Positions 4,729 to 46,357 of a DNA stretch of 55,024 nucleotides are shown here, in pieces. The stretch covers positions 56,232 to 111,255 of the forward strand of contig CAYFHS010000014.1 in NCBI GenBank assembly GCA_964342815.1, given 5' to 3'. A program made the translations under genes and the position numbers. How positions within the stretch are numbered: the first letter of the stretch is position 1; every line of letters begins with the position of its first letter. This stretch comes from an uncultured archaeon (GTDB lineage: Archaea > Thermoplasmatota > Penumbrarchaeia > JASLWR01). Below the pieces are notes generated by a model. That model was not told the DNA's origin and searched no databases. It saw only the letters and a list, made by a program, of their open reading frames with translations.

Positions 4729-4954
4729 AGCTCTCACTGGTTAAGCCAAATAGTAGTTCTTATTTAAGTACCTTTTGTCAATATAGAATCCGAGACATAT
4801 ATTTTATACCATTCGGTCTATAGGATTAAGCGAAATATCCTACTGAAGGACCCCGTTATTTTTTTCTATGGGTAAATTCTAAATACAATCTACCCAATTA
4901 TCTATCCGGTGTTGAGAAGTGTTCCACAGCATTATAAATGGGAAGGAGGGGGCT

Positions 4955-5707
4955 ATGGGGTGGTGGATAGTTTCTATGATTTTTTTATCAATTCTATCTT
5001 CTGGTTGTACATGGTTCGGAGGAGAAGGAGAAGAACGGATTCCCACCGCAGTACTTAAATCCGAAGGGAAAAATCCAGCGGGTTATTACTTGGTCAGGGT
5101 AGACCGGATCAACTATCCTATAAGGGTAAGAAATGTTGAAATTTCCTTTCTGGACAGGAACGATACGAAAGTTGTTTTTTCCGCCGGCAGGAACACAACC
5201 GGAATCACACTAGATCAGATATATTTTGCGGACCATTCCGGTGTCGACCATCGTTATCAAGTGATCTATTATGATATAGACAACGATCTGCGTCTTGCCG
5301 GTACAGAGGCAAATCATACGAAGGATTATTTTATCATTTACCCTAGACTTGGACTTATGAACTCGGGAAACAGCGAAAGTTGGCTTGCTAATCTGACACT
5401 GGTATTGTACTGGAGGGATGACTCCTACGTTGAGAAGAACAGGAACAACACCGAAGAATTGATAATCGGAAAGACATTGATAGATTCAAATAACACAATG
5501 GAGAAAAATATCATTGACCTGGAAAATAAAACAAATGAATCCGACACTGACGTTAATTCTCTTCTGATTATCGTTTTTATAATTGCTTTTCTTTGTATTG
5601 TCTTAATATTTACATTCTTGTTCAGAAAATCTGGAAAGTCCAGCGAAAATGATAATATAGAAATACCAAATAAAAACGAGAAAACGGCTCCAAATATGGA
5701 CGAATAA
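4955..5707 (+). CDS. secreted/membrane-anchored protein, possible lipoprotein
   Basis: Signal-like N-terminus ending LSSGC, C-terminal TM plus charged tail; GGAGG SD before ATG 4955. Confidence 0.7.
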   Translation: MGWWIVSMIFLSILSSGCTWFGGEGEERIPTAVLKSEGKNPAGYYLVRVDRINYPIRVRNVEISFLDRNDTKVVFSAGRNTTGITLDQIYFADHSGVDHRYQVIYYDIDNDLRLAGTEANHTKDYFIIYPRLGLMNSGNSESWLANLTLVLYWRDDSYVEKNRNNTEELIIGKTLIDSNNTMEKNIIDLENKTNESDTDVNSLLIIVFIIAFLCIVLIFTFLFRKSGKSSENDNIEIPNKNEKTAPNMDE

Positions 5708-7109: not shown

Positions 7110-7228
7110 TTCCCCATCCATCACAAAGAAATAGTTAAATCATCAACAAAGGGTTAAACTTAAATTGAAAAAAAGTATTCACCTTAGAACCGATCGAGTT
7201 GGATTTGGTTAATAACCGAGGATATTTC

Positions 7229-7774
7229 ATGGAACACAAGATAATCAAGAGGAAGATTTGTCTTCTGGGATCTCCTTCCGTGGGGAAAACAAGTCTTATC
7301 AGAAAATTCGTTTTCGACTCGTTCTCGGACAAGTATATATCAACAGTTGGCACCAAGGTTACAAAAAAAGATATCGAGCTCGTGATAGCAAAGAGCAATC
7401 TGAAGATCACACTTTCTTTGATGATATGGGATGTTCTCGGCCAGACGGGATACAAATCTCTCCATGCAATGTTCTACCGCGGCGCCTCCGCGGCAATGAT
7501 TGTATGTGACCTTACCAAAAAGCCAACCTTCGACGGTCTCGATGAATGGGTCGAATCACTTTTCAAAGTGACAAAACCAATTCCGGTGATATTTTTAGCA
7601 AATAAAGCCGATCTTACAGATAATTACGCTTTCCAACCTGAAGATATAAACGAACTCTCACAAAAGATTAATACAATATATTATCCTACCTCAGCTAAGA
7701 CCGGTCTGAACGTACAGACCGCTTTTAATAGATTATCCAAAATTTTAATCAGAGACTTTCTTAAAAAGGCTTAA
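7229..7774 (+). CDS. Ras-superfamily (Rab/Roc-like) small GTPase
   Basis: G1 GSPSVGKTS, G2 YISTVG, G3 WDVLGQ, G4 NKAD, G5 TSAK. Confidence 0.9.
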   Translation: MEHKIIKRKICLLGSPSVGKTSLIRKFVFDSFSDKYISTVGTKVTKKDIELVIAKSNLKITLSLMIWDVLGQTGYKSLHAMFYRGASAAMIVCDLTKKPTFDGLDEWVESLFKVTKPIPVIFLANKADLTDNYAFQPEDINELSQKINTIYYPTSAKTGLNVQTAFNRLSKILIRDFLKKA

Positions 7775-7793
7775 GTACTTATCGAGTGAAAGT

Positions 7794-8028
7794 GACCCAT
7801 ACTGGTCCCCGACGCAATATCGGAGATATTGCTAGGGGTGCGTAGCAATCACTATTGCAAGCATTAGCAGAACTCGTTCTGCAATATCGGAGAAACTTGT
7901 TTCTCCACCACCTGTCGGTACGCAAGTACCGAAGGAGCAGGAGCATACTAATGCTCTGGAGCCCGTAGATTTCATCTTGAAATTGAGGGATTAGGGCAAT
8001 CTCTGATTGTCCAGAGTGAAACGGACTC
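7794..8028 (+). ncRNA. candidate structured RNA / hairpin-array element (R1)
   Basis: About ten consecutive short hairpins including a GCAA tetraloop; G-T pairs favour the + strand; homologous to the 20.5 kb element. Confidence 0.5.
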
Positions 8029-8105
8029 ACCATTCAGGACAAGAAATGATCGATCAAGTTAAATTTAGCTGGGTCTTTGCTTAGGTGCTCTTGGAGGGAA
8101 ACGAT

Positions 8106-8363
8106 ATGAGTGACGAAGAGAGAAAGGGATCCGAGGTTGACAACATACTTGCAGAGGTGGAGGAGGATGTTTTCAGGAATGAGAGAATGATCAAGCTCTC
8201 CATAGCATTGGAATATATGATCCAGCTCGTTGAACCGAAATATAAAGAAGCTTTCATAAGAGCAGAGAGGAATGCCAGATCCGTGGAGGAGATGAACCGG
8301 ATACTGGAACTGGCAAGGAAGCATATTGGGCAGCGAACAGCCATAACCATACTCGGCATTTGA
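8106..8363 (+). CDS. small helical hypothetical protein
   Basis: 85 aa, GGAGG SD, protein-like composition, T-rich tract after the stop. Confidence 0.7.
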   Translation: MSDEERKGSEVDNILAEVEEDVFRNERMIKLSIALEYMIQLVEPKYKEAFIRAERNARSVEEMNRILELARKHIGQRTAITILGI

Positions 8364-8479
8364 ATCTTTTTTTCTTTAACATGTAAATGATTCCCACATC
8401 TATGGGTCGTTTATTTCGATCTCAAGGGACCCCTACCGCTTCTCAATTCTTTTCTGTAATCCAAGGGAGGTATTGACAT

Positions 8480-9670
8480 ATGCAGATCGGAATCGTTGGA
8501 AAACCTAATGTAGGAAAATCAACCTTTTTTAATGGCGCTACTCTCGCCAGCGTAGAGATAGCAAACTACCCATTTACCACGATCGAAGCGAACAAAGGGA
8601 TCGCTTACCTCAGGACCAAATGTCCCCACATAGAGTTCAAAACCGACTGCACACCCAATAATTCCAAGTGTATTGAGGGCATAAGATACGTTCCGATAGA
8701 AATGATCGATGTGGCAGGTCTCGTTCCTGGAGCCCATGAAGGAAAGGGCCTGGGCAACAAGTTCCTGGATGACCTGAGACAGGCCGACGCGCTCATTCAT
8801 ATAATCGATGCTTCGGGAAGCACCGATTCCGAAGGAAATCCTTGCCCTAAGGGAAGCCATGATCCGCTGGATGACGTAGAATTTCTTGAAAATGAGATCG
8901 ACCTATGGTTCAAAAGCATTCTTTCGAAAAATTGGAGGCGTATATCGAAAAGAGGTCGCCTGGAGGGAACGAAACTGGAACTACTCATCCTGGAACAGGT
9001 AACAGGCTTGGGAATAACAAGGGAACAGGTACTCCATTCACTTCACAAGTGCAGTATCCAAGGAAACCCGGAGGACTGGAGTGAGAAGGAACTTTTAAGG
9101 CTGGCTGTCACACTTCGCAAGATCAGTAAACCATTCATCCTGGGAGCCAACAAATGCGATATTGCACCTACAGAGAACCTGGAGAAACTGACTGAGCTTA
9201 AAGATTACACAGTAATACCGGCCATGGCTGAGCTTGAATTGGCCCTTAATAATGCCACCTCTGCTGGTCTCCTGATATATAACAGAGGTGAGAGTGATTT
9301 TGAGGTTATTGATCCCAGCCGGTTGAACGAGAAGCAGAAGAAAGGATTGATGACCATAAGGAAGCACCTTCAAAAATGGAAACGGACCGGTGTTCAGAAA
9401 TGCATCGAGGAAGCCGCCTACAATCTTCTTGACCTGATAGTCGTATTTCCTGTAGAGGACGAAAACAAGCTCACGGACCATGAAGGTAGGGTACTACCGG
9501 ACGCTTATCTTATGAAAAAGGGGACTACCGCTCTTGATCTTGCTTTCAAGATCCATACCGATCTCGGGAAACACTTCATAAGGGCCATCGATGCAAGGAC
9601 AAAACGGGTAGTGGGAAAGGATCACGTTTTGAAACATGGGGACGTGATAAGTATAGTTTCCGGAAAATAA
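8480..9670 (+). CDS. ychF: YchF/OBG-family GTP/ATP-binding protein with TGS domain
   Basis: GIVGKPNVGKST, NYPFTTIEAN, DVAGLVPGAHEGKGLGNKFLDDLRQAD, NKCD, C-terminal TGS (IHTDLG..FIRAID). Confidence 0.9.
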   Translation: MQIGIVGKPNVGKSTFFNGATLASVEIANYPFTTIEANKGIAYLRTKCPHIEFKTDCTPNNSKCIEGIRYVPIEMIDVAGLVPGAHEGKGLGNKFLDDLRQADALIHIIDASGSTDSEGNPCPKGSHDPLDDVEFLENEIDLWFKSILSKNWRRISKRGRLEGTKLELLILEQVTGLGITREQVLHSLHKCSIQGNPEDWSEKELLRLAVTLRKISKPFILGANKCDIAPTENLEKLTELKDYTVIPAMAELELALNNATSAGLLIYNRGESDFEVIDPSRLNEKQKKGLMTIRKHLQKWKRTGVQKCIEEAAYNLLDLIVVFPVEDENKLTDHEGRVLPDAYLMKKGTTALDLAFKIHTDLGKHFIRAIDARTKRVVGKDHVLKHGDVISIVSGK

Positions 9671-9684
9671 ATTGTGGTGATGTC

Positions 9685-11181
9685 ATGCCCGAAACCGAAG
9701 TATACATGGAACTTCGAGAAGAACCAACCAAGATATCATCGAAAAAACTATCTGGCAAAACGGTAAAAATACTATCCGTTCTTATAATTACCTTGATCAT
9801 TATCGCCGTTATTGGTTATTACGTGCTGTATCCCGGTAAAGATGAGACGAAGTCTGAGATAGAACTATATTTTTTTGGGATCAACACAAGATGGTCGACC
9901 CATTTCAAAAACTATATCGTCACCTTTGAAAACACCCCGTCAAGGGAGAACGTAGAGATCAGGATATCAGCAGGCAACGAATCGAGAATTATCCGTGGAG
10001 ATGACTTGGCTCAGGTGAACGAACACCAGTTCCTTGTAGAACCTGACTTAATCCATGAGGCAGGGGAAACCGTAACAGTTGAAGTGTATGAGAAAGGGAT
10101 GCTGATCGGGGAAAGAATGATAGTACCAACTATGACGGATTGGATGAAAACTGCGGCAGGGGGTGAGTATGATTACGATTTTTACAATCTTCGCGATAAA
10201 AGAACTTACGATGGTACTGAAAGAGAGATCCAGAAAATGCTTGGGACGTTAAATATCATTAATTCGCAGGGAAATATTATATCTGATTTTACCGGCAAGG
10301 GAACTTCGAGGATAAAACAGAGCACTAGTGATCCCGAGATGGAGTTCAATATTGACTACAGGATTGAGCTGGATCAATTCACATCATCCACAAGTAAAGC
10401 AAACGGAAAGACCTTTGTGGAACATATGACCATGAGCGGAAATGGTGACGGGGATTTCTATATCAACGCCGAAGGTGTCGGAGAACTCACTGCCGATTTG
10501 ACCGTGGAGGAATATTATGTAGAAGCCCTGGAAAATAATCTTACGGATTCTTCCATGATTGCAAACGGGAATTTCCATGGTGACGTAACAGGGACGATTC
10601 AAATCGAGGATTTTACCACAGGAGAGGAGATCCACGATAATTATCTTGGCATCAATTATCCGTGTATAATCAATGAGGGCTCTATGAAAATAAAGATGAA
10701 TCAGGGACCGGTCCCCGTGTTCATCTCTTCCCAGTATCGGATGTGGAACGTAAAAAGCTTTGATTTCCAATACAACACGATATATTATGTGACGAACTCA
10801 ACAGTAAACAGCCAATCAGCGGGGGAGGATAGTGGGTACGTGGAGGACGCCCCGAAACCCGCCAACATTACAATCGATGACGTTACAGAGGTCCAGGGGC
10901 TTATCCCGAAGAATATTGATATTAACGATAGCTTCGTTCTATCTTCCCAATATGGTTATGAAGTAAGATATAGGGCAGTATCACCTGAAAAACCCGTTGA
11001 ACTAATTACAGAGATTTCAGATGAGCGGGTTGCTCTTGAGGGAGAGGTGATAAAAGAAGGTTACGGAGACGATTTAATCCTTTTAAACTACGACGATCTG
11101 GTCGGCTCGATACCAATAGAAAGACACTATTCCTTCGGCTGGGGTGACGAGTTTATTTCGGTAAACATGACAAAAAAATAG
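9685..11181 (+). CDS. N-terminally anchored extracellular protein of unknown function
   Basis: 498 aa, one N-terminal TM then a beta-rich acidic region; GGTGA SD. Confidence 0.7.
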   Translation: MPETEVYMELREEPTKISSKKLSGKTVKILSVLIITLIIIAVIGYYVLYPGKDETKSEIELYFFGINTRWSTHFKNYIVTFENTPSRENVEIRISAGNESRIIRGDDLAQVNEHQFLVEPDLIHEAGETVTVEVYEKGMLIGERMIVPTMTDWMKTAAGGEYDYDFYNLRDKRTYDGTEREIQKMLGTLNIINSQGNIISDFTGKGTSRIKQSTSDPEMEFNIDYRIELDQFTSSTSKANGKTFVEHMTMSGNGDGDFYINAEGVGELTADLTVEEYYVEALENNLTDSSMIANGNFHGDVTGTIQIEDFTTGEEIHDNYLGINYPCIINEGSMKIKMNQGPVPVFISSQYRMWNVKSFDFQYNTIYYVTNSTVNSQSAGEDSGYVEDAPKPANITIDDVTEVQGLIPKNIDINDSFVLSSQYGYEVRYRAVSPEKPVELITEISDERVALEGEVIKEGYGDDLILLNYDDLVGSIPIERHYSFGWGDEFISVNMTKK

Positions 11182-11196
11182 TAATTGTAGTGTCGT

Positions 11197-12129
11197 CTAG
11201 ATCTCAATATCGATCCCCAATTTGTCGGTGAGCTCCTTGTAACGGTTACGGATGGTAACCTCTGTAACTCCCGCCACATCCGCCACCTCTCTCTGTGTTC
11301 TCCTCTCGTTACACTTTATGGAGGATACGTATATGGCCGCTGCCGCCACTCCGGTGGGTCCTCTACCAGAGGTAAGTTCCTCTTTCTCGGCCCTTTTCAG
11401 AATCTCTATGGATTGGGCGTGTACTGCGCCGCTGAGCTTCAGCTCGGAACAAAACCTCGAAACGTAATCCTGAGGTGAAGTCGGGAGCAATCTAAGATTA
11501 AGCTCACGTGTCATGAAGCGGTATGTCCGCCCGATCTCCTTTCTGCCCACCCTTGATGTATTGGCAACTTCGTCCAGTGTGCGAGGCACGTTGGACTGCC
11601 TGCATGCAGCATACAGAGATGCCGCTACAACTCCTTCAATAGACCTGCCGCGGATTAGATTTTTGTTAACGGCTCTCCGATAGATCATTGCAGCGGTCTC
11701 CCGGACAGTTCGGGGCAGGTTCATACCGGAAGCCATACGATCCAACTCCGAGAGTGCAAAGGCGAGGTTGCGCTCCGTGGCGTTGGACACCCGAATCCTT
11801 CTCTGCCATTTTCTCAATCGATAGAGCTGTGCACGGTTCTTGGTGGGTATGGATTTTCCATAGGAATCCCTGTTCTTCCAGCCGATCTGTGTTGATAATC
11901 CCTTATCGTGTTTGGTGTATGTCATGGGGGCCCCGGTACGCGCTCTCTTTTCACCCTGTTCCGGGTCGAAAGCCCGCCATTCTGGCCCTTGATCAATAAA
12001 TGTGCTGTCCAGCACGAGACCGCAATCTTCGCAAATTAGTTCACCCCTCTCGTAATCCCTTGCAAGATGTTTGCTGTTACATTCGGGACAACTTGTAATC
12101 TCTTCCACGTTCTGAGTTCTTCTTACCAT
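11197..12129 (-). CDS. tfb: transcription initiation factor IIB
   Basis: CPEC..CEDC Zn ribbon, GPEWRAFD B-reader, two cyclin repeats, [23 protein letters not shown]. Confidence 0.97.
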
Positions 12130-12164
12130 AATAATCATCTCTCATCTGCTTTGGTTCCAGGGAT

Positions 12165-12407
12165 TTATTTTATGTATAGGTCTCGACCCACCAGGCTGAC
12201 GAGCCTTTCTTTATTCCCCGTAGGCTTCGCTTTCATATAGGGGGAATGCGTGGGACCGAATATCTTAATCACCCTGGCGATTTTTCGATTTCTCCTGTCA
12301 AATACACCCATCATCCGTTTTGGTGGACCAATATCATTTGAACATCTTAGGATCAGATAACCGTCCGTGGAGATATTCATCACTTTTACCGTTTTGGGAA
12401 TGGGCAT
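12165..12407 (-). CDS. gar1: H/ACA RNP subunit Gar1/Naf1
   Basis: VFDRRNRKIARVIKIFGPTHSPY motif; conserved adjacency upstream of tfb. Confidence 0.85.
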   Translation of the reverse strand: MPIPKTVKVMNISTDGYLILRCSNDIGPPKRMMGVFDRRNRKIARVIKIFGPTHSPYMKAKPTGNKERLVSLVGRDLYIK

Positions 12408-12666
12408 CACACCTGATATAACATTCATTCATTAGTATATTAATCGAATTGAACGCATCATGCACGGCATTCAAAGCACATATATGGAGGCAATTCTATA
12501 TAAGATTTCCCCACAGATTTAAATAATTTATTCTTTTATCATAAATAGTTTTTGTTAAATGAAGTGAACAAATTTTCTGTTAATCCACAAATGATCATCA
12601 ATCAAATTGTATTAAATTCGGCTTTTCATCGAATGTTAATGTTTTTTCAAAGAATTTTTTTTAAGG

Positions 12667-14826
12667 GTGAAATATTTATACATTCCTCGACCTAATAATA
12701 ATCCATTAGAAAAAGGTGATAAAATCATACACTTAAACCAATTTACCGTAAAATCCATCCTATACTTCACGGCTTTGGGATTGATATTTTCACTTATATT
12801 TACCTTGGTGGCCGATCCAATAATGGAAACTAGAAAAACGGAGATAAAAAATTATACAAACGCGTTTCCAATTGAGGAACTGGAAACGGAAACGAGAATA
12901 ATTATAACAGCAGAGACCTACCTTGAATTATATTCTCCTCCCAGAGCATATCACGAAGACCCCTATTATGTTTACGGAACGTTATACGAAAAAGGAGAGA
13001 CACTGGATATCGGGGCTCGGTATTGTCCACTTCACATATACTGGGATGATGAGCCGGTGGGTGAAGAATTTTTCATCAGTACATCCGGGGAGACAGGAAA
13101 TGAAGGATATTTCAGGGTACCCATTCCCGTCAACCAGACAGAGGGAACATACCCCATGTTCATCGAATTCCGCGGTCAGGTGATAATAAACAATACGAAT
13201 GTTTATGAATATGATCCGACGAATGAAACGCTCGACCCGGAAAAGAATCCTGATTCAACAATGTTCAGATATCCGAGTAATTTCACAGTGGACGTGGAAG
13301 TTTTTTATCATTCTTTTATAGACGCTTCCATATCTACAAGCTGGATTACGGCGGGAGAATCATTCTGGATCAATGGTTCTCTCAACGTCTATGAGACCGG
13401 AGAACCCATCTTCAATGCCCGAATGAACATTACGATGGATTCAAAAAAAATAGGAGAAATCAGATCATCACCGTCGGGTGAGTTCAATGAAAAATTGCGA
13501 TTAATGAACTCTACAGCCCCTGGCCCCCATAAGCTCAGGGTAGATTTCTGGCAGTTTCATTTCCAGGAAAATGCCCTCTATGGGAGTAGTTATACGACAT
13601 TCGATGTTCATTTCGTACAATTGGTGGTGATGGACTTTTCCGTAACATCTCTCACCAGCGGTGAGAAAATCTATATAAACGGGACTCTCAGCGATCTTAG
13701 AGGTGAATCTCTCCAGGACCCCATCGAACCGGATAAAATATATTATCTGGAGGGAGAAATTGTAAACTGTACCGAAGGGGATTCATACGGCCTCGATAGC
13801 ATTGAAGTGCTTAATGGAACATCTTATAATATCACTTCGGTCCTTCCAAAGAATTTCCGGGCTGGCCTTGCTAAAGTTATTCTCGCCTTTAACAAAGATA
13901 ACCTGTACGGTGATAGCGAATCAACGAAAGAAGTAATGATTAGTACGATTCCTTCAATAGAAATAGATTCTTTTTCATTCAACAAGCCGATAGAGAACGT
14001 TTCAGGTAGAGTGACAGACAGCGGTGGCCGGGGATTATCAATTCCCTTAAAAGCGTATATTAACGGGACTGAAGCGGGATTTGGCTCATCAGACGAAAAC
14101 GGAGATTTCAGGTTTGCGATATCCTTAACGGACGAAATTGGAATTGGATCTGTAAAAGTGCAAGTTGAGGCCATCTCAACATACAGGTCCCAGACTTCCC
14201 ATGAAGAAATTGAGATCGAAGTATATTCCTCGGCCGTGTTACGCTGCGAACTTATGATCGATAAGAATAATATAAAAATAGATTACGCTAGACCGGGAGA
14301 TGGAAAAGGATTGTTGAACATTACGTATATTGTCAGTAATGAAGGGAATGTGGTTTCTGAGCCGTGCCAGGTTTTCCTGCGTTCCTTACCTGAGCTTGAA
14401 AAATCCGTATTTCTCGATTCGATCCTTCCCGGTGATACGGTTGAAAAATATTTTCAATGGGCTGTAAAAGACAATATTACCATGGATTTCGTTGTTGACC
14501 CGGAGGGAATAGTATCGGAAATAGATGAAGGCAACAATATCATTTCGATTCGATTGGAACAGGACCTCTATGATCTTGACGGAGACGGTGATTACAATTA
14601 TGTCGACGAAGATACGGACGGAGACGAATTCCTAAATGATAAAGAGATCGAAGCCGGAAGCGATCCGTACGATAAAGATTCGATACCAGCTGAAGTGCCT
14701 GATGGAAATACGGATAAGAATGAAGGTGAGAAAAGTCCGTGGTGGATCTACATTATTGGAATATTTGTGGTGATCGGAGTTATAGCCATAATAACGATGA
14801 TTCTTAAAAGGAGCCATCAGAAATAG
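12667..14826 (+). CDS. surface protein with Ig-like repeats, CARDB domain, Ca-binding DxDGDG repeat and C-terminal TM
   Basis: VDPEGIVSEIDEGNN CARDB motif; DLDGDGD..DTDGD..E..GSDP; C-terminal TM plus KR. Confidence 0.8.
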   Translation: MKYLYIPRPNNNPLEKGDKIIHLNQFTVKSILYFTALGLIFSLIFTLVADPIMETRKTEIKNYTNAFPIEELETETRIIITAETYLELYSPPRAYHEDPYYVYGTLYEKGETLDIGARYCPLHIYWDDEPVGEEFFISTSGETGNEGYFRVPIPVNQTEGTYPMFIEFRGQVIINNTNVYEYDPTNETLDPEKNPDSTMFRYPSNFTVDVEVFYHSFIDASISTSWITAGESFWINGSLNVYETGEPIFNARMNITMDSKKIGEIRSSPSGEFNEKLRLMNSTAPGPHKLRVDFWQFHFQENALYGSSYTTFDVHFVQLVVMDFSVTSLTSGEKIYINGTLSDLRGESLQDPIEPDKIYYLEGEIVNCTEGDSYGLDSIEVLNGTSYNITSVLPKNFRAGLAKVILAFNKDNLYGDSESTKEVMISTIPSIEIDSFSFNKPIENVSGRVTDSGGRGLSIPLKAYINGTEAGFGSSDENGDFRFAISLTDEIGIGSVKVQVEAISTYRSQTSHEEIEIEVYSSAVLRCELMIDKNNIKIDYARPGDGKGLLNITYIVSNEGNVVSEPCQVFLRSLPELEKSVFLDSILPGDTVEKYFQWAVKDNITMDFVVDPEGIVSEIDEGNNIISIRLEQDLYDLDGDGDYNYVDEDTDGDEFLNDKEIEAGSDPYDKDSIPAEVPDGNTDKNEGEKSPWWIYIIGIFVVIGVIAIITMILKRSHQK

Positions 14827-14993
14827 GAGGATTTATTGATCTTACTTTCAGTCAAATTCAAGTCCTGAAAAGATATATAATATAAATGCCAGTATATCGG
14901 ATCAAATATGTTCCTATATAAGCTTTACTTTCACCCGCCCCCCTTAAAAAACCTTTTATAAGAACTCTGGAATATATGGTTCAGGTGAAATAA

Positions 14994-16007
14994 ATGCCTA
15001 GAAAAAAGAAGAATATAGAAAAAGATGAAGAAATTATTGACGATAATATTGGTAACGAGGTTGGAGAGGGTGTGGATGACCTTAGCCTGCTTCCTGGTGT
15101 TGGACCAGCCACTGCCGAGAAATTAAGAGAAAGCGGTTTTACAGATTTAATGGCCATCGCTGTTACGTCTCCATCGAATCTCTCGGAGATGTGTTCAATT
15201 GGAGAGGGGACTGCGGCGAAGATCATAAGTTCGGCGCGGAAGTTGGCCGATGTAGGAAATTTCCTTACCGGCGTAGAAGTTATAGAACGGAGAAAAAGCG
15301 TGGAAAAATTGACAACGTCATCAAAAGCCTTAGACGAGCTTCTGGGTGGTGGTGTCGAGACCCAGGCAATTACCGAGGTTTACGGGGAGTTCGGCTGCGG
15401 TAAAACTCAGATCGCCCATCAATTAGCCGTGAATTGTACCACGGCCAAGGAAAAAAGCGGATTCGACAGTCACGTGGTGATCATTGATACCGAAAATACC
15501 TTCAGACCTGAGAGAATATCACAGATGGCCGAGGGCCATGGGATCGAACCCATAGAGGTCATGAAAAGAATTCATGTTGGTAGAGCCTACAATTCACACC
15601 ACCAGATGCTGCTTGTTGACAAGGCTGGAGAACTAGCAAGGGAATTCCCGGTAAAACTTCTGATTGTGGATTCTCTCACCGCTCATTTCAGATCAGAGTA
15701 TATGGGAAGAGGCGCATTGGCAGAGAGGCAGCAAAAACTCAACAAGCACATTCACGAACTGCAGAAGTTCTCAGACAAGTTCAACTGTGCGGTCCTTGTA
15801 ACCAACCAAGTGATGTCCAGACCCGATGTTTTCTTCGGAGATCCGACAAAACCAATCGGGGGTCACATATTAGGTCATGCGTCCACATTCAGGATATATT
15901 TGAGAAAATCAAAAGGTGATAAAAGGATCGCAAGACTAGTTGATTCCCCCTGCCTACCTGAAGCCGAAGCGGTCATGACCATTGTCACCGATGGCATTCG
16001 GGATTGA
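14994..16007 (+). CDS. radA: DNA repair and recombination protein RadA
   Basis: Hh[13 protein letters not shown], Walker [33 protein letters not shown]. Confidence 0.97.
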
Positions 16008-16013
16008 TTTTAA

Positions 16014-17321
16014 TCAAGCTTTCTTTTTCAGGCTTATAAAATGTCTGATAAGTGACCGGTGGACCCTGTGACTGACTGCATTTTCCAGAAATAATCCTTC
16101 GGATAGATTGGATAGATATGTCATGGAAGGCAGTATCATTGCACATCGTCCGCCGTTTTTCAATATTTTTTCCGCGGAGACGAACATTCTACTGTAAAGG
16201 TTTTCCATTTTCTCACCACCGGTTGATGTGGATCTTCCATAGGGAGGGTCGGTGATGACGGCATCCATTACCGGAAAAATATCAACTGCTTTCTCAATAT
16301 CACACGCCTCAATATGTTGATAACCGAGATTGAAGAAAGCAAAATTCTCTTTCGTTCCCTCAACCATCCTAATGTCAATATCGGATCCGTAGATCCGGGC
16401 GCCGATCATGGCAGATTCCAAAAGGATCCCTCCCGTACCGCAAAAAGGATCGAGTATGCATTGATTTTTTTCCACTCTAGCCATATTCATCAACACTCTC
16501 GATAGATTGGGGGAGAGTGTGATGGGCAGCGAAAAGGGGCGGAATTGATTTCTTCTTTTCCTCATACTTTCGCGGTCCGCCAAGGCGATCTGTTCCCCGA
16601 TAAAGATATTTCTGGAAATGATGACTGTGACAACTTTCTGCGGTAAATCGAGATCCAGCTTGCCCCCACCATCAGTGATCAATTTACCGATTGCCTTTTT
16701 TATCGTAGTTCCCGAGACCTTTTGGAAGGCACCCTGTACCCTTATTGATTTGAGACCCAAGCTGCTTTTTGATGCCAGCCATTCACAAAAGAATCTGGAA
16801 TTTGTAGATAGAATTTCCAAAATATCATCAAAATGAACATCATCCCGTTCTTCTATAATTCGTTCAATTTTCTTTGTTAGCAGCTGAGACGGAAAAAGTT
16901 CTCGATATATCCCAATAACATGGCCCGTCCTTTCAGCGATCTCCTCCCAATGGTTCTCCGACGCGTTGCTCCTGACAAGAACTACCTGTGGTGAGATATC
17001 CACGATCTCAGAATTCATTCCGGTAGAGGCCATAGCTCCTTCAAGTTCCGTTAGGGCCAGGCTAAGACTTTCCCCGGAAGTGAGTATGAAGATCAGTCCC
17101 GAGCCCCCTAATGAGTTAAAAGAATTCAATTGAAAAACACCTGCAAACATTTTCATAGTGGGAAGAACTACGAATATTGTTTTCATAAAAATTGTTTTCG
17201 GTGTCGTGTCCTTAGCATTTAGTCCGCTGTCTTGAAATTTCCAAACATATCCAAAATTAATTATCCAATAATGCAATAAAGAGACATAAATTAGCTTTTT
17301 GCCCGATTGATATGGCAACAA
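16014..17321 (-). CDS. tRNA (guanine-10-N2)-methyltransferase Trm11/TrmG10 (THUMP + MTase); true start probably about 200 nt inside the ORF
   Basis: RPFSLPITLSP, LDPFCGTGGILLE, DPPYGRS, VHRSLIRH motifs. Confidence 0.85.
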   Translation of the reverse strand: MLPYQSGKKLIYVSLLHYWIINFGYVWKFQDSGLNAKDTTPKTIFMKTIFVVLPTMKMFAGVFQLNSFNSLGGSGLIFILTSGESLSLALTELEGAMASTGMNSEIVDISPQVVLVRSNASENHWEEIAERTGHVIGIYRELFPSQLLTKKIERIIEERDDVHFDDILEILSTNSRFFCEWLASKSSLGLKSIRVQGAFQKVSGTTIKKAIGKLITDGGGKLDLDLPQKVVTVIISRNIFIGEQIALADRESMRKRRNQFRPFSLPITLSPNLSRVLMNMARVEKNQCILDPFCGTGGILLESAMIGARIYGSDIDIRMVEGTKENFAFFNLGYQHIEACDIEKAVDIFPVMDAVITDPPYGRSTSTGGEKMENLYSRMFVSAEKILKNGGRCAMILPSMTYLSNLSEGLFLENAVSHRVHRSLIRHFISLKKKA

Positions 17322-20291
17322 GGTATTAGCAAACAGGAGGGAATTGTAATCAGACAGAAAATATTGATATTCGTGATATTATTTTGCCTGATCATATCAC
17401 CCCTCCGGGTAGGAACATATAAGCATGCGGAAATTGATTTAACTTATTACGATGTAGCTGAGCCTGGGCACAACGAAGAAAATTTTTTTAATACCACAAT
17501 CCGCTCTGATGCATGTTCTGAATGGGCCGGAAAACCCATAAGCATAGATGGATTACCTGACGAATGGATCCGGGATTATTTCCCAACTCCCGTGGGTGCC
17601 GCCGGAGAGAACGTCGATCTTTACATGGCAAACAATGATACTTTCCTGTATATCTGTGTGGATGTGTTATCCGACAACACGAATGAAGAGAGCGCTGACG
17701 ATGCGATTCTGTTATTGTTTGACGGAGATAACAGCAATAACGTGAGCAACAGAACCTCGGTACCCTATTCGGATGATGATCTCGTTGGAAATAATGACAA
17801 CTGGGTAAGTATATGTGGGGATCCTTCCTCGAAAAGCACCCCTGGTGCAACCGCTCTGAACTGCCATAATGATGCAGGTTATATTCTGAAATATCCGGAT
17901 AACGATACTCTCTTGCTGGTTCACGACGACAATAAATGGATAAATGAGTGGAAATACAAATGGAATGTCAGTCTGAATGGTTCGCCCGCACGTATGGTTT
18001 ATGAGTTACGTATACCACTTGATAAATGGGGTTGGTCACCTGGCTATACCATAGGTGGAACTCTGGCAGTCTTCAAGGATGGCAATAATTCACCTATTGG
18101 CATCTGGCCCTCAAATCTTCAAACCGGGGATGCCAAAGATCCCAGCCTATGGCTTGATTTCACTCTTGGAACTCCAAATGAGAAACCCACTATAAAAAGA
18201 GCGTCAGCCACACCTTCCATAGTTGAGAATGATGGCGAGACTGAAGTTTTGTTCACTGTGGATGCTGAAGATGCCGATGGCCCGCTGTCGATAGTTACCA
18301 TTAACTTAACAGATATCCGGCAAAACGGGAATGCTGAGATGTTGGATGATGGAACCGGGGGAGACGAGATCAGTGGTGATGGTACATATTCGTACAGCAC
18401 CACCATATCATCCTCGATTTCACCGGGAAAATACGATTTGCCTATCACCGTAACCGATGATCACAGCCCCAATGCAGGATTGGCGACGAAAAAAATAGAG
18501 CTGGAGGTCGCTCAGGCTAACAGAGAGCCGCATTTCGTTCAGGTGAACGGGACCGACATCACAGGATTGAACAGGATCGAGCTGACCGCCTATGAAGACG
18601 TTGATAATACATTCGATTTCACAGCTGAAGATGACGATGATGATCTTCTAATTTATTCCATCAATGTCGGCGAGGTCTTTTTCGATCTCGTAAAAGGAGT
18701 AGATTACCGTTTCGACCTGGCAACCGGGAAGCTCGAAATCAAACCGAAACAAGAAAATGTCGGTTCACACGGACTAAAATTGGACGTAAGTGATGGAAGA
18801 GGCGGAAGCGATAATATCGAAATCACACTATATATCGAAAACACGAATGACAAACCGCAGTTAAACGATATAAAAACTCAAGTTGTTTTCCAGGACTCGT
18901 GGTTGAATCTCACTCCAACGGTAGTTGACGAGGACGATGATATGTTCACATTTTCAACTAATTTCACAGAATTATTCGAAGGGAATCTCTCTAAGGATCA
19001 TTTCAAATTTCAGAACGGTACGGGCGATTTCCGGTTCAAACCCGACAAAAAGATGGTAAAGAAATTTCACACGTATATAAGAGTTGAAGACTCTGCTGGG
19101 ACATTCACCAGAGAAGATTTTATAATTGATGTGATAAACGTCAACGATCCGCCCGAATCTGCTTCATTCAATTATTCAATTGAACAATACGATCCCATGG
19201 TCTCTTTTTCGGCAAATGAAGGGACCGATCCCGATAACGATCCCATCACTTATACCTGGAACTTCGGGGATGATACGAAAAATCAATCCGGAGAGAGGCT
19301 GCTGGAGGTGGAACACAGCTACCAATCCGAGGGTACATTTACCGTTAATTTGACATTGAGCGACAATCAGGGATTCAGCATCCAATGTTCAAGAGAAATT
19401 TCTGTAACCCTCCCACAATTAAGAGGAAAAATAACAGAAATGAATGTTGGGGGAATTCCTGGATGTGACATAGGAATAAATCGGATCGATAAAGCACGGA
19501 AAGTAATTAACCTAACCACGGGAGCAAATGGGGAATTCAGCACTCCCCTAGTACCGGGGACATACAATATCACTATAAGAAAGGAGGGATTCGTAACTGA
19601 AAAAACTCAAATTACAATGACCACCAGTGTGATTTGGTGGAATAAAACCATTACCAAAATCCAGTCCGATGATGTTGAGCCGGTAACGAAAACCGAGTCA
19701 GACGAAAGCGGCGGATGGGTATATTGTATCCTTGGTGTTGGAGCTTTATTGTTCGTAGGTGCGGTGGCGATTATGATGATGATGAGGCGGAAGAAGAAAA
19801 TGGAAACTCCGCACCCTGAGCCTGAATTAACATATGGTATAAGCCAGCAGAACCAGAGAATCTTCCAGGCTGCACCGGCTCGCACATTTGCAACTCCTCA
19901 ATATTCACCACCATCCTCAAACATTACTCATACAGCTCCCGACATTGACCAGACGCCGGTAAGAACGGAAAATACTTCCGTACCGGAAATACCAGTGAAA
20001 AAACAGCATAAGAAACCAACCATCGTTTCTGAGATATGGCCGGAGAAAAGGGAGAAAGAGAAAAAAATCGACGTGATCAAGGTTATCAAGAAAAAAAAGG
20101 ATGAAGATATCCAGGAAATTTTTGGCGGTTCAAGAGAACTAGCACTAGTTCCTATCGAAGAGGAAATAACACCGGAGACGACTCAGAAAATGAGCGAGTC
20201 CGAGCTTTCTCATAGCAACAGCCCGGAAATCGCGGATTCACTCAAGAACATGGCAGAGATATTAAAATCGTTCTCAAAAAAGAACGACTGA
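17307..20291 (+). CDS. multidomain surface protein (DOMON/CBM9-like, DDG..GD..GDG repeat, cadherin-like repeats, PKD, TM, cytoplasmic tail)
   Basis: YELRIPL; MLDDGTGGDEISGDGTYS; NVNDPP; YTWNFGD PKD motif; TM near residue 810; start codon uncertain. Confidence 0.8.
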   Translation: MIWQQGISKQEGIVIRQKILIFVILFCLIISPLRVGTYKHAEIDLTYYDVAEPGHNEENFFNTTIRSDACSEWAGKPISIDGLPDEWIRDYFPTPVGAAGENVDLYMANNDTFLYICVDVLSDNTNEESADDAILLLFDGDNSNNVSNRTSVPYSDDDLVGNNDNWVSICGDPSSKSTPGATALNCHNDAGYILKYPDNDTLLLVHDDNKWINEWKYKWNVSLNGSPARMVYELRIPLDKWGWSPGYTIGGTLAVFKDGNNSPIGIWPSNLQTGDAKDPSLWLDFTLGTPNEKPTIKRASATPSIVENDGETEVLFTVDAEDADGPLSIVTINLTDIRQNGNAEMLDDGTGGDEISGDGTYSYSTTISSSISPGKYDLPITVTDDHSPNAGLATKKIELEVAQANREPHFVQVNGTDITGLNRIELTAYEDVDNTFDFTAEDDDDDLLIYSINVGEVFFDLVKGVDYRFDLATGKLEIKPKQENVGSHGLKLDVSDGRGGSDNIEITLYIENTNDKPQLNDIKTQVVFQDSWLNLTPTVVDEDDDMFTFSTNFTELFEGNLSKDHFKFQNGTGDFRFKPDKKMVKKFHTYIRVEDSAGTFTREDFIIDVINVNDPPESASFNYSIEQYDPMVSFSANEGTDPDNDPITYTWNFGDDTKNQSGERLLEVEHSYQSEGTFTVNLTLSDNQGFSIQCSREISVTLPQLRGKITEMNVGGIPGCDIGINRIDKARKVINLTTGANGEFSTPLVPGTYNITIRKEGFVTEKTQITMTTSVIWWNKTITKIQSDDVEPVTKTESDESGGWVYCILGVGALLFVGAVAIMMMMRRKKKMETPHPEPELTYGISQQNQRIFQAAPARTFATPQYSPPSSNITHTAPDIDQTPVRTENTSVPEIPVKKQHKKPTIVSEIWPEKREKEKKIDVIKVIKKKKDEDIQEIFGGSRELALVPIEEEITPETTQKMSESELSHSNSPEIADSLKNMAEILKSFSKKND

Positions 20292-20435
20292 ATTATATTT
20301 ATCACACTTTGCGTGAGCTTAGATGTTTTCTTATCATACAATGTAGATTTGATGTCCGCAAAGAATGCGATAAATGTTCCCCGCTGTTATCTATTACATT
20401 TGTCAAGAATATTTGCCAAGATAAGTTTCCGGGAC

Positions 20436-20855
20436 TGCTTTACGTGTAAAGCCGACCTATTCTGGCTCAACTTTACCAAGAAGACGGTCACTTTGTTCCT
20501 GTCTTTACGTGTAAAGCCGACCCATTCTGGCACCCGACATAGAATCGAGGATTCTATTAGGGTTAATAGAAACTTGTTTCTATGTCACCCGTAGGCATAC
20601 TTGCCGAGGGTGCAGCAATAGCATGGGTATTGCACATGACTATCGGGCAACCACCCGATAGTCGCAGCAACACTTTAGAGTGTTGCGGAGCAAAGCGGGC
20701 ACAACTTTACCAAGAAGACGGTCACTTTGTTCCCGTCTTTACTTGAAAAGACGGAGACTACTAGCCCATCTTGGCATGGCTTGCCCGGTAACGTCCGGAC
20801 AAGTGAGACGTGTCGGTAAACGCGTCAACAGTGACGTGCCATTATGGTACGTCTT
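20436..20855 (+). ncRNA. candidate structured RNA / hairpin-array element (R2) with internal duplications
   Basis: More than 12 short hairpins; duplications 20438-20466/20503-20531 and 20468-20508/20702-20742; covarying homology with R1. Confidence 0.5.
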
Positions 20856-20944
20856 AACCCATCACGGTATACAGGATTTCTACAAGGAATCGAGACTATT
20901 GAATGAGAAAATTTTAATATCGAACAGCCGGTTATGTTTAAAAT

Positions 20945-22356: not shown

Positions 22357-22479
22357 CCCGTCTTAGCATAGACTGGCCAATGCGGCGGACTGTAGTTGGA
22401 AAACGGATTAAAGGGAGGAACCCACCGTCGTCCAGTGGCCATCCGCAGACCCCCGGTTCAAATCCGGGAGACGGGACCA
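22357..22479 (+). tRNA. tRNA-Tyr(GTA) with a 45-nt intron at 37/38 (22396-22440) and encoded CCA
   Basis: C1-G72 acceptor CCCGTCT/AGACGGG-A-CCA, anticodon stem GCGGA/TCCGC, CT-GTA-G then intron forming a relaxed BHB. Confidence 0.93.
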
Positions 22480-22537
22480 TTTTTTTCCTTGCATGCCGAG
22501 CAGGGTGACCCCGAGTTTTGGGATTTTCGTTTTTAAT

Positions 22538-22786
22538 AACCGACAAATGTTCGGCCCATCACCAACAATATTAACTATACTTAGGATGAATATCTCCATT
22601 AATGATGAATTTATGCAGTTGAATCCATCGACAAATGTTCCCCATTCCATCTGACTAATGTTCGATCATCTCTATTATCACACCATCCAAACCTCACCGT
22701 CCAAAACAGAGGCTATTATTAATACGGTCTTACTTTCACTCACCCCCCTCCCCCCTTCATCTTTAAATACACTTTGAACATTTGTC
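22538..22786. repeat. dispersed GACAAATGTTC motif cluster (3 direct, 1 inverted)
   Basis: 22542-22552, 22630-22640, 22653-22663 (GACTAATGTTC), reverse copy 22776-22786; same core as the repeat at 1-56. Confidence 0.7.
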
Positions 22787-23301: not shown

Positions 23302-24639
23302 TCAAATCGAATTATACATTCGTAGGTATTCATCTGCAGCTTTCGCCCATGATGAGTCATATTCTATGGCCTTCTCCCTTACTTTTTGCATGTTCCCGGA
23401 GTTTTCGTAAAGCTTCCTTGCTCGCTCGATTGCCCCCATTAGAGATTCGGAGGAAAGATCATCGAATCGGATACCCCATCCTTCTTCCTTTATATCCCTA
23501 ACCGTCTCCGCAAGTCCACCAGTGGATCTCACCACCGGTATGGTCCCGTATCTCATGGCAATGAGCTGTCCCAGGCCGCAAGGTTCGAACTTTGACGGCA
23601 TCAAGAAGAAATCTCCTCCGGCATATACCCGGTGAGCTTCCACCTCGTCGTATCTAATAAGGGCAATCAGGTTTCCATATCGCTCAGATAGATCCGACAG
23701 ACTCTTTTCCAGGTCCGCCTCGCCAGTACCAAGAATGAACAACGACGATTTGTCTACAATTTCGGGAAGGGCTTTTATAAGTATATCAATACCCTTTTGT
23801 TTAGCCAGACGGCTCACCATTCCAAATAGCGGCAGACTTGGGTCCAGTCCGTACTTTTGACATAACTGTTCTTTATTGTAGGATTTGTCCCTGATGCTTT
23901 TTCTATCGTAGTTCTTGTCAATGAAACCATCCGTGGCTGGACCCCATACTTTAGTATCGATCCCGTTCGTTATCCCTCTCAACTTTTTTTGATGGATCCT
24001 AATATGGGCTTCAAGCCCATAACCGTACTCTTTGGATCTTATTTCTCCAGCATAAGTTTCGCTGACCACGTTGAACGCGTCGCAACTCCTGATACCGGCC
24101 AAAAGAAAGTTAAGGCCCCTTTTTTCCCGTAATACCTCTTTATCATTGAGGGAAAGTGATGCTCCGATCTCACTCGGAAATATCCCCTGATATTGAATAT
24201 TATGTATGCTCAATATTCGTTTGGCTCTCAGATCTCTTTCCTTTGCAAAAGCCAGTGTAAGGGAAGCGTGCCAATCATTTGCATGAATCAGGTCATTGTT
24301 CAATTTCTCACAAAGTAAGGCAGCTCCTTGGGAAAAAGCGGCAAACCTCTTTGCCGTATTCTCAGAATGATAGATATCCTCGCCATCAAAGAGATTTTTT
24401 TTTTCCACCAGATAAACTGGTATATCAAGGTCAGATCGGAAGTAGAAAATAAAATTCTTCGTATCAGACAGATCCATTCTTTTCCCTTTATCAAGAAATG
24501 AATATGCCGGTAAGACAACCGAAACGTCAAGGCCAAGTTGCCGTAGAGCGACAGGCAAGCTTCCGGCGACGTCACCCAAACCTCCCACCTTGACCAGTGG
24601 ATACATCTCTGCGCTCACATAAAGGACTTTCAGGCTCAT
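23302..24639 (-). CDS. glgA: glycogen synthase (GT5)
   Basis: SAEMYPLVKVGGLGDV, HANDWH, SIHNIQYQG, SRLAKQKG, MPSKFEPCGLGQLIAMRYG. Confidence 0.93.
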   Translation of the reverse strand: MSLKVLYVSAEMYPLVKVGGLGDVAGSLPVALRQLGLDVSVVLPAYSFLDKGKRMDLSDTKNFIFYFRSDLDIPVYLVEKKNLFDGEDIYHSENTAKRFAAFSQGAALLCEKLNNDLIHANDWHASLTLAFAKERDLRAKRILSIHNIQYQGIFPSEIGASLSLNDKEVLREKRGLNFLLAGIRSCDAFNVVSETYAGEIRSKEYGYGLEAHIRIHQKKLRGITNGIDTKVWGPATDGFIDKNYDRKSIRDKSYNKEQLCQKYGLDPSLPLFGMVSRLAKQKGIDILIKALPEIVDKSSLFILGTGEADLEKSLSDLSERYGNLIALIRYDEVEAHRVYAGGDFFLMPSKFEPCGLGQLIAMRYGTIPVVRSTGGLAETVRDIKEEGWGIRFDDLSSESLMGAIERARKLYENSGNMQKVREKAIEYDSSWAKAADEYLRMYNSI

Positions 24640-24649
24640 CGTCACCGAC

Positions 24650-25804
24650 TCATAACAGTTCTTTCAAACCCCGTAAAGGTATTTTCACATTCGCCGGGCG
24701 GTTCTTAGCTTCGTAGCATATCTCGTAAATCGCTCTTTCCAAAAGCCAAGGATATATTTGTTCCCTTTGGACCCCATATCCGTCCATTATCTTTTCAGCA
24801 ATTTGATTACTCCACCTTACTCCCATTTCACGATCATTCCGGGGAAGATCCCGGATCATGTAGTCAAAGGACCGTATTAAGGATGCCACGTCTCGTTCTC
24901 GTGGAAAAAAAGGAGGAGAATCATGATCGGGCTCACCCTCGAAATCGATAAATTTGTAACAATCCTCATAGTATAATATCTGGCTCAAGTGAAGATCCCC
25001 ATGAGTCATCTGAATTTTTTCCATGTGATCGATCATGCCGAGGAAACGCTTTGCTGCATCGTCCACATATCGAAAATCGGGTTCCCCAAGTATTACGGAA
25101 AGGAATTTCAGCCTCTCCATCATCTTCTCCTTCATTTCCCAACGCCATTTGCTTAATTCCGGAGGATCAATGAAATCAACTAGATTTCTATGTAACTCTC
25201 GTATGCTTCGACCCAGTTCCCATGCATTTATTCCGATAGTTTTTTTTTCTAAAAAATCAAGTAGATCTCCATAGTAAATTTCTCCCGTGTCACGACCTTC
25301 TTCGAACTTAAAAAAAGAATGTAAACACATACTGTTGTATTTTACCGCCCCGTAGCAATCCGGGACCGAATTGAAATTTTGTCCTCTAAGCCATATTATC
25401 AGATCCGCTTCAAAATTATTTCTTCTAAGTCTCCTGTAGGATTTCGAGATCATACCATCCGCCTTGCACAAAACATTCGAAGTTCCTGAAAAATGTATCT
25501 CAACGGACTCCACTTGGGGAATTTGCCGATGTCCAGAGATTATTGTTAACCCATTTCCCCCCGTCCCTGATAAATTCATTTTTTCAATCAATGTATTGAG
25601 ATATTGAGGATCGGAATCGCACTCACAACCGCTTCCGGTATGAATTGGAATTGCATATTTTTCGCTCATGGAATCAGATACCGCCGATATGATGAGAATT
25701 TCATATTTGCCCAGTTCCACCCGGTCGGTAATTGATATTCGTGAAGAAAATCCCTTCTGGGCAAACCATCTTTTTCCTTCAAGAAACTCAAGATCTATCG
25801 ACAT
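24650..25804 (-). CDS. maltokinase (Mak/Pep2)-like kinase
   Basis: KSYRR, HGDLHLSQIL, IDFEGEP, RDVASLIRSFDY, ERAIYEICYE..NRP motifs; start placed at MSIDL. Confidence 0.8.
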   Translation of the reverse strand: MSIDLEFLEGKRWFAQKGFSSRISITDRVELGKYEILIISAVSDSMSEKYAIPIHTGSGCECDSDPQYLNTLIEKMNLSGTGGNGLTIISGHRQIPQVESVEIHFSGTSNVLCKADGMISKSYRRLRRNNFEADLIIWLRGQNFNSVPDCYGAVKYNSMCLHSFFKFEEGRDTGEIYYGDLLDFLEKKTIGINAWELGRSIRELHRNLVDFIDPPELSKWRWEMKEKMMERLKFLSVILGEPDFRYVDDAAKRFLGMIDHMEKIQMTHGDLHLSQILYYEDCYKFIDFEGEPDHDSPPFFPRERDVASLIRSFDYMIRDLPRNDREMGVRWSNQIAEKIMDGYGVQREQIYPWLLERAIYEICYEAKNRPANVKIPLRGLKELL

Positions 25805-26946: not shown

Positions 26947-27134
26947 CGTTCATCTTAAAAATCCTTATAGTAGATTAAATTAGCGATGGTGAAATCAGGG
27001 GGGGTCTTTGTGTGTATATTTTTTTTGAAGTTGATAAGCAACAGATATAAAGTATTCATTGTATTTCCTTCGGAAATTATAAGTAAAAGTCATACTGCTC
27101 TAACTGAATTGCTTGAAAGAACTAGTGATGCTTC

Positions 27135-30984: not shown

Positions 30985-31053
30985 TTACCATTCACCTCGG
31001 CAAGAAAAAACGATTTTTATATAACTCATTCTCAATATAAAAGGATTTCCGAT

Positions 31054-31290
31054 AGAATGAATCACCCACAGATGAAGCTGCGGGTTTCATTCTCGGCGCT
31101 TGCGGACCGGAACGCTGCGCTGCATCCACAGGGTAATATCCCGAGGATGCAAGGGCATCTCGATGCCATGGAGGGAAACGGGCATCCCTCGGAAACAAGT
31201 TTCCATCAGGACAATGCAGAATCTGCTTCCCCTTCTCCTCAGCTATCGATTGATAATGTAGGAGAAATGGATTCCTGCAGATATAATGGC
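31054..31290 (-). ncRNA. candidate structured hairpin-array element (R3)
   Basis: Series of hairpins including GGAAAC-TT-GTTTCC (minus strand), GGCATC-GA-GATGCC and a 40-nt stem at 31054-31093. Confidence 0.4.
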
Positions 31291-31316
31291 AAGAATCGTT
31301 CGCATAACAACGGGAA

Positions 31317-44257: not shown

Positions 44258-44356
44258 GTATAACGACCTGCGGGTATACGAAGTTCCGACCAAAGGGAGG
44301 TTATTTGGGCATAGCACGAAGAATATCGTGCGGCGCCGAGAACTCGTTAGTTAGGC
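44258..44356. repeat. attC-like site A (terminal, most degenerate)
   Basis: GTATAAC...GTTAGGC, 99 bp, internal GCACGA-AGAATA-TCGTGC hairpin. Confidence 0.75.
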
Positions 44357-44574
44357 GAGGGTGAAGTCCTCCCACAAGCGCAGAGTGGGGTACGTGGGTG
44401 TTGAATTTCCAATATCCTCTCTTTTTTTTCAGATTTTTTATCTGTCATCCGCTTCTATATCTTCCACTCGACTATGAAACATTCGAAGTTGGACAAAGGT
44501 TAATAATATCCCCTCCAATCAATTAATTAACTTGGCCATTCGTGGTATAATAATATACGTTCCAGAATCAGTCT

Positions 44575-46328: not shown

Positions 46329-46357
46329 TTACTACTTAGTAAATTACTACACAGTAA
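46329..46357 (+). promoter_or_regulatory. tandem palindromic operator TTACT-N4-AGTAA x2
   Basis: TTACTACTTAGTAA 46329-46342 and TTACTACACAGTAA 46344-46357 directly before ATG 46360. Confidence 0.6.

Follow-up and report, generated by a model that had tools for sequence, protein, structure and literature searches.

Hairpin arrays R1 and R2 of a marine Thermoplasmatota archaeon are composite copies of a high-copy palindromic mosaic repeat

Anatomy of the hairpin arrays

The window analyzed here, a 55,024-nt stretch that is part of one contig of a marine Thermoplasmatota genome (4.35 Mb in 116 contigs, 89% complete), contains two strings of hairpins, R1 and R2, which a first-pass annotation of the sequence had described, together with a third site, R3, as an unrecognized family of structured non-coding RNA. 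The module-by-module alignment of R1 with R2 proposed there is correct, with all modules at the places given: the two B stems differ in sequence while their pairing is kept (7808-7837 and 20533-20562), and R1 carries two extra hairpins (7838-7862 and 7867-7882). The parts of the three loci, including the palindromic units that act as carriers and the cargo that splits them, are as follows.

7786-8043: R1 as a whole
7786-7807, + strand: degenerate left carrier end of R1 (GTGAAAG..CCCATACTGGTC), akin to the left arm (GTAAAG..CTGGCAC) that the 63-nt unit has
7808-7837, + strand: R1 module B, CCCGAC-GCAATATC-GGA-GATATTGC-TAGGG
7838-7882, + strand: the two extra hairpins of R1, between B and C
7889-7906, + strand: R1 module C, a hairpin of the form GGAGAAAC-TT-GTTTCTCC
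7909-7941, + strand: R1 D-type hairpin with a GCAA loop
7909-8043, + strand: right part of R1, comprising the D-type hairpin, three more hairpins (one of them CCC-GTAG..TGA-GGG) and a degenerate right end
20438-20742: R2 as a whole
20438-20445, + strand: left junction of R2, CTTTAC-GT, before the first unit
20446-20508, + strand: intact, empty 63-nt carrier unit (GTAAAG..CTTTAC), followed by a 2-nt linker, GT
20511-20533, + strand: left arm of a second carrier unit, with the insertion point CTGGCAC at its end
20534-20702, + strand: cargo of 169 nt, whose terminal GGCAC repeats the five bases directly preceding it
20533-20562, + strand: R2 hairpin B, with a different, fully paired 8-bp stem
20566-20583, + strand: R2 hairpin C
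20586-20612, + strand: R2 hairpin D, with GTAG
20615-20633, 20638-20663 and 20667-20686, + strand: R2 hairpins E, F and G
20703-20742, + strand: right arm of the interrupted carrier (..CTTTACC, a 7-bp hairpin, CTTTAC)
20743-20867, + strand: low-copy hairpin sequence beyond R2
31191-31204, - strand: R3, a lone 14-nt GGAAACTTGTTTCC hairpin in a hairpin-rich intergenic region

Both arrays fold far more stably than their shuffled counterparts (z = -4.4 for R1 and z = -7.8 for R2). A covariance model of the B-C core, built from copies other than R1, matched R1 at E = 5.5e-7, so that the likeness of R1 to the family is not due to chance. A copy on contig 18 is devoid of the two extra hairpins, and a 12-nt direct repeat, GCAATATCGGAG, bounds that deletion. 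The kinship claimed for R3 stands only as far as its GGAAACTTGTTTCC hairpin, which is indeed present on the minus strand; the locus holds no other part of the R1/R2 family and is not matched by the B-C model.

The gene directly upstream of R1 (7199-7774) encodes a small GTPase of the Ras/Roc family (Pfam Ras, E = 2e-35). Around R3, the intergenic region at 30985-31316 folds into many hairpins and contains other dispersed repeats, at 31050-31096 (about 9 further copies) and 31219-31240 (several).

Copy number, carriers and cargo

An unbiased self-comparison of all intergenic DNA in the genome returned 317 repeated segments, 203 of which (20.6 kb, 0.47% of the genome) are linked in a single network that includes R1 and R2. 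The motifs of the two arrays each occur 13-38 times across the genome: the GACCYATWCTGG motif has 27 copies, the CCCGAC..TAGGG pattern has 28 matches, of which 21 are true B hairpins, and the sequence at 20432-20530 has about 50 BLAST copies. Further homologs of the kind sought by the first-pass annotation were found for the B-C core as well, by BLAST together with the covariance model, at about 22 loci here and about 50 in the sister genome G001 (Thermoplasmatota archaeon ETNP2_MAG_1). The pair counts over 51 cores given below were taken from the alignment to the model, because a stricter regular expression for the stems recovered too few copies. R1 and R2 are therefore composite copies of a high-copy mosaic repeat, and not members of a rare RNA family with two or three copies. 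Copies differ from one another by entire modules lying between short shared ends (GCAATATCGGAG, CACCCG and GCAGCAA), and joints in unitigs from four DNA runs (60-400 nt long) reproduce the paralogous module combinations of the genome, and so are silent on polymorphism at any given locus.

Two kinds of carrier could be distinguished. The first is the 63-nt palindrome GTAAAG...CTTTAC, with 86 profile matches at 44 loci, which together with 2 linking nucleotides makes head-to-tail arrays with a period of 65 nt, conserved over its full length at 86-100% identity. Fourteen of these units are split by cargo at one point, directly after CTGGCAC, the cargo being 169 nt long (four copies), a 58-nt version of the same sequence, or an unrelated sequence of 66 nt (seven copies); each terminates in G(G/A)CAC and so repeats, or nearly repeats, the bases that precede it. 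The second carrier is a 32-nt hairpin, GCGGAATCG..CGATTCCGC, which is empty in 11 cases and in 13 holds cargo, its two ends then lying 93-230 nt apart. In both carriers the insertion point lies just 3' of a small CCN-TTC-NGG hairpin, and direct repeats of 4-5 nt (GGCAC or GGGC) flank the cargo. The carriers end in terminal inverted repeats of 6 bp (GTAAAG/CTTTAC) and 9 bp (GCGGAATCG/CGATTCCGC), respectively. The notable feature of the family is a fixed, structure-defined insertion point common to two carriers.

No cargo exceeds 230 nt or contains an open reading frame (ORF), and the 65-nt tandem period, together with loop length changes of 1-2 nt, excludes a coding function. Conservation of the entire 65-nt period leaves no unique spacers, ruling out a CRISPR array. 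A group II intron fragment is unsupported, since no intron family was matched in Rfam scans. Integron attC sites were ruled out on anatomy, by the CTTTAC/GTAAAG ends and by cargo of at most 230 nt without an ORF.

That two carriers with no relation to each other both take up cargo at a single, constant position of a folded palindrome also invites a looser comparison with attC-like recombination, in which the carriers would be folded sites and the cargo would be exchanged by a XerA/IntI-like tyrosine recombinase. Four genes for tyrosine recombinases are indeed present in the genome, and the product of one scores as 'XerA / integron integrase'. However, the carrier ends, as read from the sequence and not with an attC model, mismatch the attC core sites RYYYAAC/GTTRRRY, the cargo is gene-free, and the surroundings of the four recombinase genes, out to about 5 kb, are free of repeats from the mosaic network; the gene on contig 7 adjoins a separate cassette-repeat family. 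We consider such an exchange very improbable.

Orthologous sites, base pairing and orientation

The sister genome G001 is syntenic with positions 135-22060 of the window, at 75-86% identity, before synteny breaks off at about 28.4 kb (28421). At the orthologous positions on its contig 75 the arrays are missing: the whole of 7791-8078 (R1) is absent, G001 having 45 nt against 289 in the window, and in place of 20381-20867 (R2) it has only 15-16 nt, against 488 in the window. The reverse case was also found, in that metagenome contigs from a sister population (L100, L094 and L102) are filled where this genome is empty, and another (L089) carries a 124-nt cargo exactly at the position of an empty 32-nt carrier of this genome. 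Over 231-275 nt, copies in this genome match one another at 97%, far above the identity of orthologues between the species (75-87% for the flanking genes), so the arrays have spread or been homogenized since the species split. A separate 3.3-kb segment of the window (23626-26965) is also missing from the syntenic G001 contig.

The family is narrowly distributed. Among 37 genomes of the class (this genome, G001, G002, G003 and 33 others), the B-C core outside this genome and G001 gave two weak matches in G002 and none in the 33 others, and the 63-nt unit is present in this genome and G003, indicating that carrier and cargo are distributed differently. When 185,579 species genomes were scanned for exact matches to the main B type, the only one to contain it was Thermoplasmatota archaeon ETNP2_MAG_1, and the viral contigs searched were free of both the B-C core and the 63-nt unit.

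Base pairing in the modules is truly preserved. Across 20 aligned B-C cores, 10 of the 18 pairs vary at both partners and not one varies at a single partner, a degree of covariation that was reached by none of 500 shuffles and that collapses in slid controls. In this respect the covariation predicted for the family was confirmed. In 51 distinct cores from three populations we counted 889 Watson-Crick cells, 1 G-T and 1 A-C, even though four columns switch between A-T and G-C. The carrier hairpin shows A-C as well as G-T intermediates. There is free variation in the loops, but none in CCCGAC, TAGGG or the ATC/GAT top of the stem.

These data bear on the reading under which the arrays were first described, namely a structured non-coding RNA family, transcribed alone or as 3' untranslated regions and acting, for example, as mRNA stabilizers or protein-binding scaffolds, whose base changes reflect selection on an RNA fold. 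Strong folding, covarying stems, a GCAA tetraloop and CTTG/TTCG-like loops, and the retention of the core sequence across species would all agree with it, as would the position of R1, R2 and R3, each of which lies, as had been observed, downstream of a same-strand gene. That position does not extend to the family, whose orientation relative to neighboring genes is random: the 63-nt unit and its upstream gene share a strand in 18 cases and lie on opposite strands in 19, and the corresponding numbers for module B are 7 and 14. The same-strand location is therefore a coincidence of three loci. Also unlike expectation for an RNA are the single G-U in about 900 paired cells despite the switching columns, the occurrence of both A-C and G-T intermediates in the carrier hairpin, the free variation of loops, the 65-nt tandem arrays, the nesting of units in one another, and their presence or absence at orthologous sites. 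Nor was there an Rfam match; for R1 and R2 nothing reached the gathering score and only long non-coding RNA noise appeared up to E = 10, and an Rfam scan up to E = 10 yielded two tRNAs and nothing else of note. The overall pattern of pairs, loops and invariant bases would fit a palindrome that must pair as DNA, a hairpin recognized by a protein, or self-correction by template switching, and it fits an RNA made from one strand poorly; this is moderate evidence, though not proof. We thus regard a non-coding RNA family as improbable. What survives of the original proposal is a real structured family with pairing kept through double changes and a variable number of hairpins, but not one of discrete RNA genes at a few loci.

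Alternatively, the palindromes might be host-domesticated protein-binding sites, serving chromosome topology or the insulation of operon ends and spread mainly by recombination or gene conversion and not by transposition. REP sequences, for instance, are bound by gyrase, IHF and Pol I. On either side of the variable stems, the bases (CCCGAC, TAGGG and ATC/GAT) are invariant across three populations, convergent gaps are in mild excess (8 of 28, against a background of 15%), and a cognate transposase was not found, each of which suits such sites. On the other hand, the family is limited to one genus and one neighboring genus, filled sites differ between sister species, 6 of the 28 arrays lie in divergent, promoter-side gaps, and a like pattern in BOX, RUP and SPRITE has been read as parasitic (Croucher et al., PMC3049150). 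In our judgment domestication of this kind is decidedly improbable.

Probable interpretation as mobile repeated DNA and the search for a mobilizer

High copy number, random orientation, tandem and nested arrays, site polymorphism and the scarcity of G-U fit repeated or mobile DNA that forms hairpins when single-stranded, an option to which the first-pass annotation gave no more than a bracketed mention. The best reading of the repeats is non-autonomous, structure-dependent repeated DNA, and the family looks like small parasitic DNA and not a new RNA gene. More specifically, R1 and R2 are likely to be lineage-restricted, non-coding palindromic mosaic DNA repeats, an archaeal counterpart of REP/BIME, ERIC and BOX. 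Under this interpretation, the units would fold into hairpins in single-stranded DNA and be recognized through their invariant bases (CCCGAC/TAGGG, ATC/GAT and CTGGC) by a putative structure-specific recombinase or transposase acting in trans, which may insert units beside or within existing ones. Slippage or unequal recombination between related modules could then alter the number of hairpins. Pairing might be maintained either because the enzyme needs a hairpin or because palindromes self-correct by template switching, and stable RNA folds from co-transcribed arrays would be a side effect.

Several observations weigh against this interpretation. The mobilizing protein that the first-pass annotation suggested looking for did not emerge: the 89%-complete genome yielded neither a transposase or recombinase whose ends match nor any Y1 transposase or TnpB. 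BLAST of all family segments against the six Y1 loci of G001 and G003 gave no match, so that the repeats do not flank these genes, and Y1 genes occur in 4 of the 33 genomes of the class that are without the repeats. The outer ends show no constant target duplication, and the 4-5 nt repeats beside the cargo are also expected where sequence between short repeats is deleted. Although genes differ by about 20% between the species, their B-C cores are nearly the same, which points to sequence constraint or exchange, and which a host function would fit as well. Lastly, loops resembling GNRA and CUUG are present.

Of the candidate mobilizers, a Y1 transposase of the IS200 type that works in trans is a weak one, and we think its involvement rather unlikely. 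Y1 genes of this type are found in two of the three other genomes with repeat matches, namely G001 (two full and three partial) and G003 (one), and not in G002, with its two weak matches; this co-occurrence is only a hint, because the genomes compared are related. The genes score as IS200 and not as RAYT (115 versus 26 bits). One IS200-type element of about 756 bp, common to two genera (L033 on contig 158 of G001 and L032 on contig 1 of G003), is bounded by TTTAC on both sides and ends in the hairpins CCAGTGCC-TTTA-GGCTCTGG and CCAGCTCC-TTTA-GGGGCTGG. These bounds are resembled by the CTTTAC end of the 63-nt unit and by its left flank, which is TTAC in 9 of the 23 and has AC or TC as its last two bases in 20, though the flanks could be what is left of decayed units. 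Another IS200 element, complete with its transposase, lies on contig 65 of G001 (L031), where it is accompanied by more than 10 end-to-end relics. Its left and right end hairpins recur in PATE-like relics of about 170 bp on contig 40 (about 4950-5130) and contig 36 (about 42970-43140), and the presence of such relics in both this genome and G001 implies that Y1 activity once existed in the lineage. The ends of the contig 65 element are unlike the mosaic family, from which the relics are distinct. BLAST of the G001 and G003 IS200 copies against this genome gave no match. A search of this genome for carrier ends enclosing a gene was likewise negative; its end pairs lie 31-495 bp apart, except for two (1,870 and 3,283 bp) whose ORF content was not inspected.

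A more far-reaching possibility is that the hairpin strings are the cargo of a structure-guided insertion system, in which a single-stranded DNA recombinase would place unrelated cassettes 3' of CCN-TTC-NGG in both carriers. We hold this to be unlikely; if true, archaea would have a new class of mobile element, nested and gene-free, and the hairpin target of such a system would be defined and potentially reusable.

In the way they work, the elements are like REP/BIME, ERIC and BOX repeats. REP systems of Enterobacteria and Pseudomonas include GTAG-tagged REPs, REPINs and RAYT transposases (PMC3733652, PMC3116915, PMC2817692), and the archaeal family resembles REP/BIME in being made of short, imperfect, intergenic palindromes in high copy, clustered as mosaics with units in both orientations (same sources), as well as in its species-specific distribution and its covarying stems with fixed flanking bases. 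Some modules also carry GTAG at the foot of the stem, as in the D-type CCC-GTAG..CGA-GGG (20589-20592 and 7965-7968). In contrast to REP/BIME, however, the commonest archaeal module, B, has GAC in place of GTAG, the GTAG that does occur belongs to an internal loop which CCC/GGG closes, nesting of units takes place at a fixed point within them, the host is archaeal, and no RAYT was found, the only Y1 genes of the relatives being IS200-scoring and not flanked by the repeats. Pneumococcal BOX elements have the layout boxA-boxB(n)-boxC, and BOX, RUP and SPRITE have been interpreted as parasitic, rarely moving DNA (Croucher et al., PMC3049150); the archaeal repeats are like them in having terminal modules with variable internal hairpins, extensive predicted structure and confinement to one species group (PMC3049150). 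The archaeal family nevertheless has no sequence relation to BOX, and differs in having several unrelated cargoes at the same site in two carriers and in arranging its carriers in 65-nt tandems.

The ERIC (or IRU) sequences of Enterobacteria, reportedly described by Hulton in 1991 and by Wilson and Sharp in 2006, are single units of about 127 nt conserved across genera. They are imperfect palindromes with short forms and longer forms that carry extra sequence at fixed internal sites, much as is seen here, although the archaeal units are far smaller, occur in greater number and have a more pronounced mosaic character. Miniature transposable elements with inverted repeats (MITEs) and PATEs, the latter being IS200/IS605-derived elements of haloarchaea (PMC3119063, PMC7290912), offer a further parallel in their non-autonomous nature, short terminal inverted repeats (here 6 and 9 bp), presence/absence polymorphism, and the TTAC-like left flanks of the 63-nt unit. 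Here, however, no autonomous partner with the same ends and no regular target duplication were found, and the ends are not homologous to the left- and right-end IS200 hairpins of G001 and G003, which the element of about 170 bp on contigs 40 and 36 does match. The repeats thus fit neither REP/RAYT systems, nor MITEs with a partner insertion sequence, nor PATEs, and are filed as interspersed mosaic palindromic repeats in an archaeon. No published counterpart of the family was found in the literature searched.

While a few bacteria have had their interspersed palindromic repeats studied well, those of archaea have received hardly any attention. The loci described here provide a natural series at one point of a folded palindrome, from empty carrier to filled carrier to orthologous empty and filled sites, which makes it testable what moves or builds such repeats without a RAYT. 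The repeats also have practical effects: they break assemblies (33 of 232 contig ends stop inside a repeat of the mosaic network), give rise to spurious small ORFs, and will go on being taken for new structured RNAs.

Other repeats were noticed in the window. Positions 44300-55024 hold an array of small gene cassettes (a PIN toxin, a ParE-like toxin with its partner, a protein of the DUF234/ATPase_2 kind and unknowns). Between the cassettes lie copies, all in one orientation, of another conserved block, 170-400 nt long, of which there are 22 segments genome-wide. On contig 7, repeats of this block lie about 2 kb from the gene of a tyrosine recombinase of 391 aa, whose 'XerA / integron integrase' score is 222 bits (cut-off 220), and this may be an integron-like cassette platform. 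A tRNA gene with a 48-nt intron lies at 22357-22476, as detected by a local scan only (50.6 bits), ARAGORN and the whole-window Rfam scan having missed it. A third repeat family (..CTGACAAATGTTCG.., with a 23-nt period and 15 segments genome-wide) occurs at positions 1-85 and 22534-22666, adjoining both tRNA genes, and about 2.3 kb of extra sequence between these tRNAs in G001 suggests an integration hot spot.

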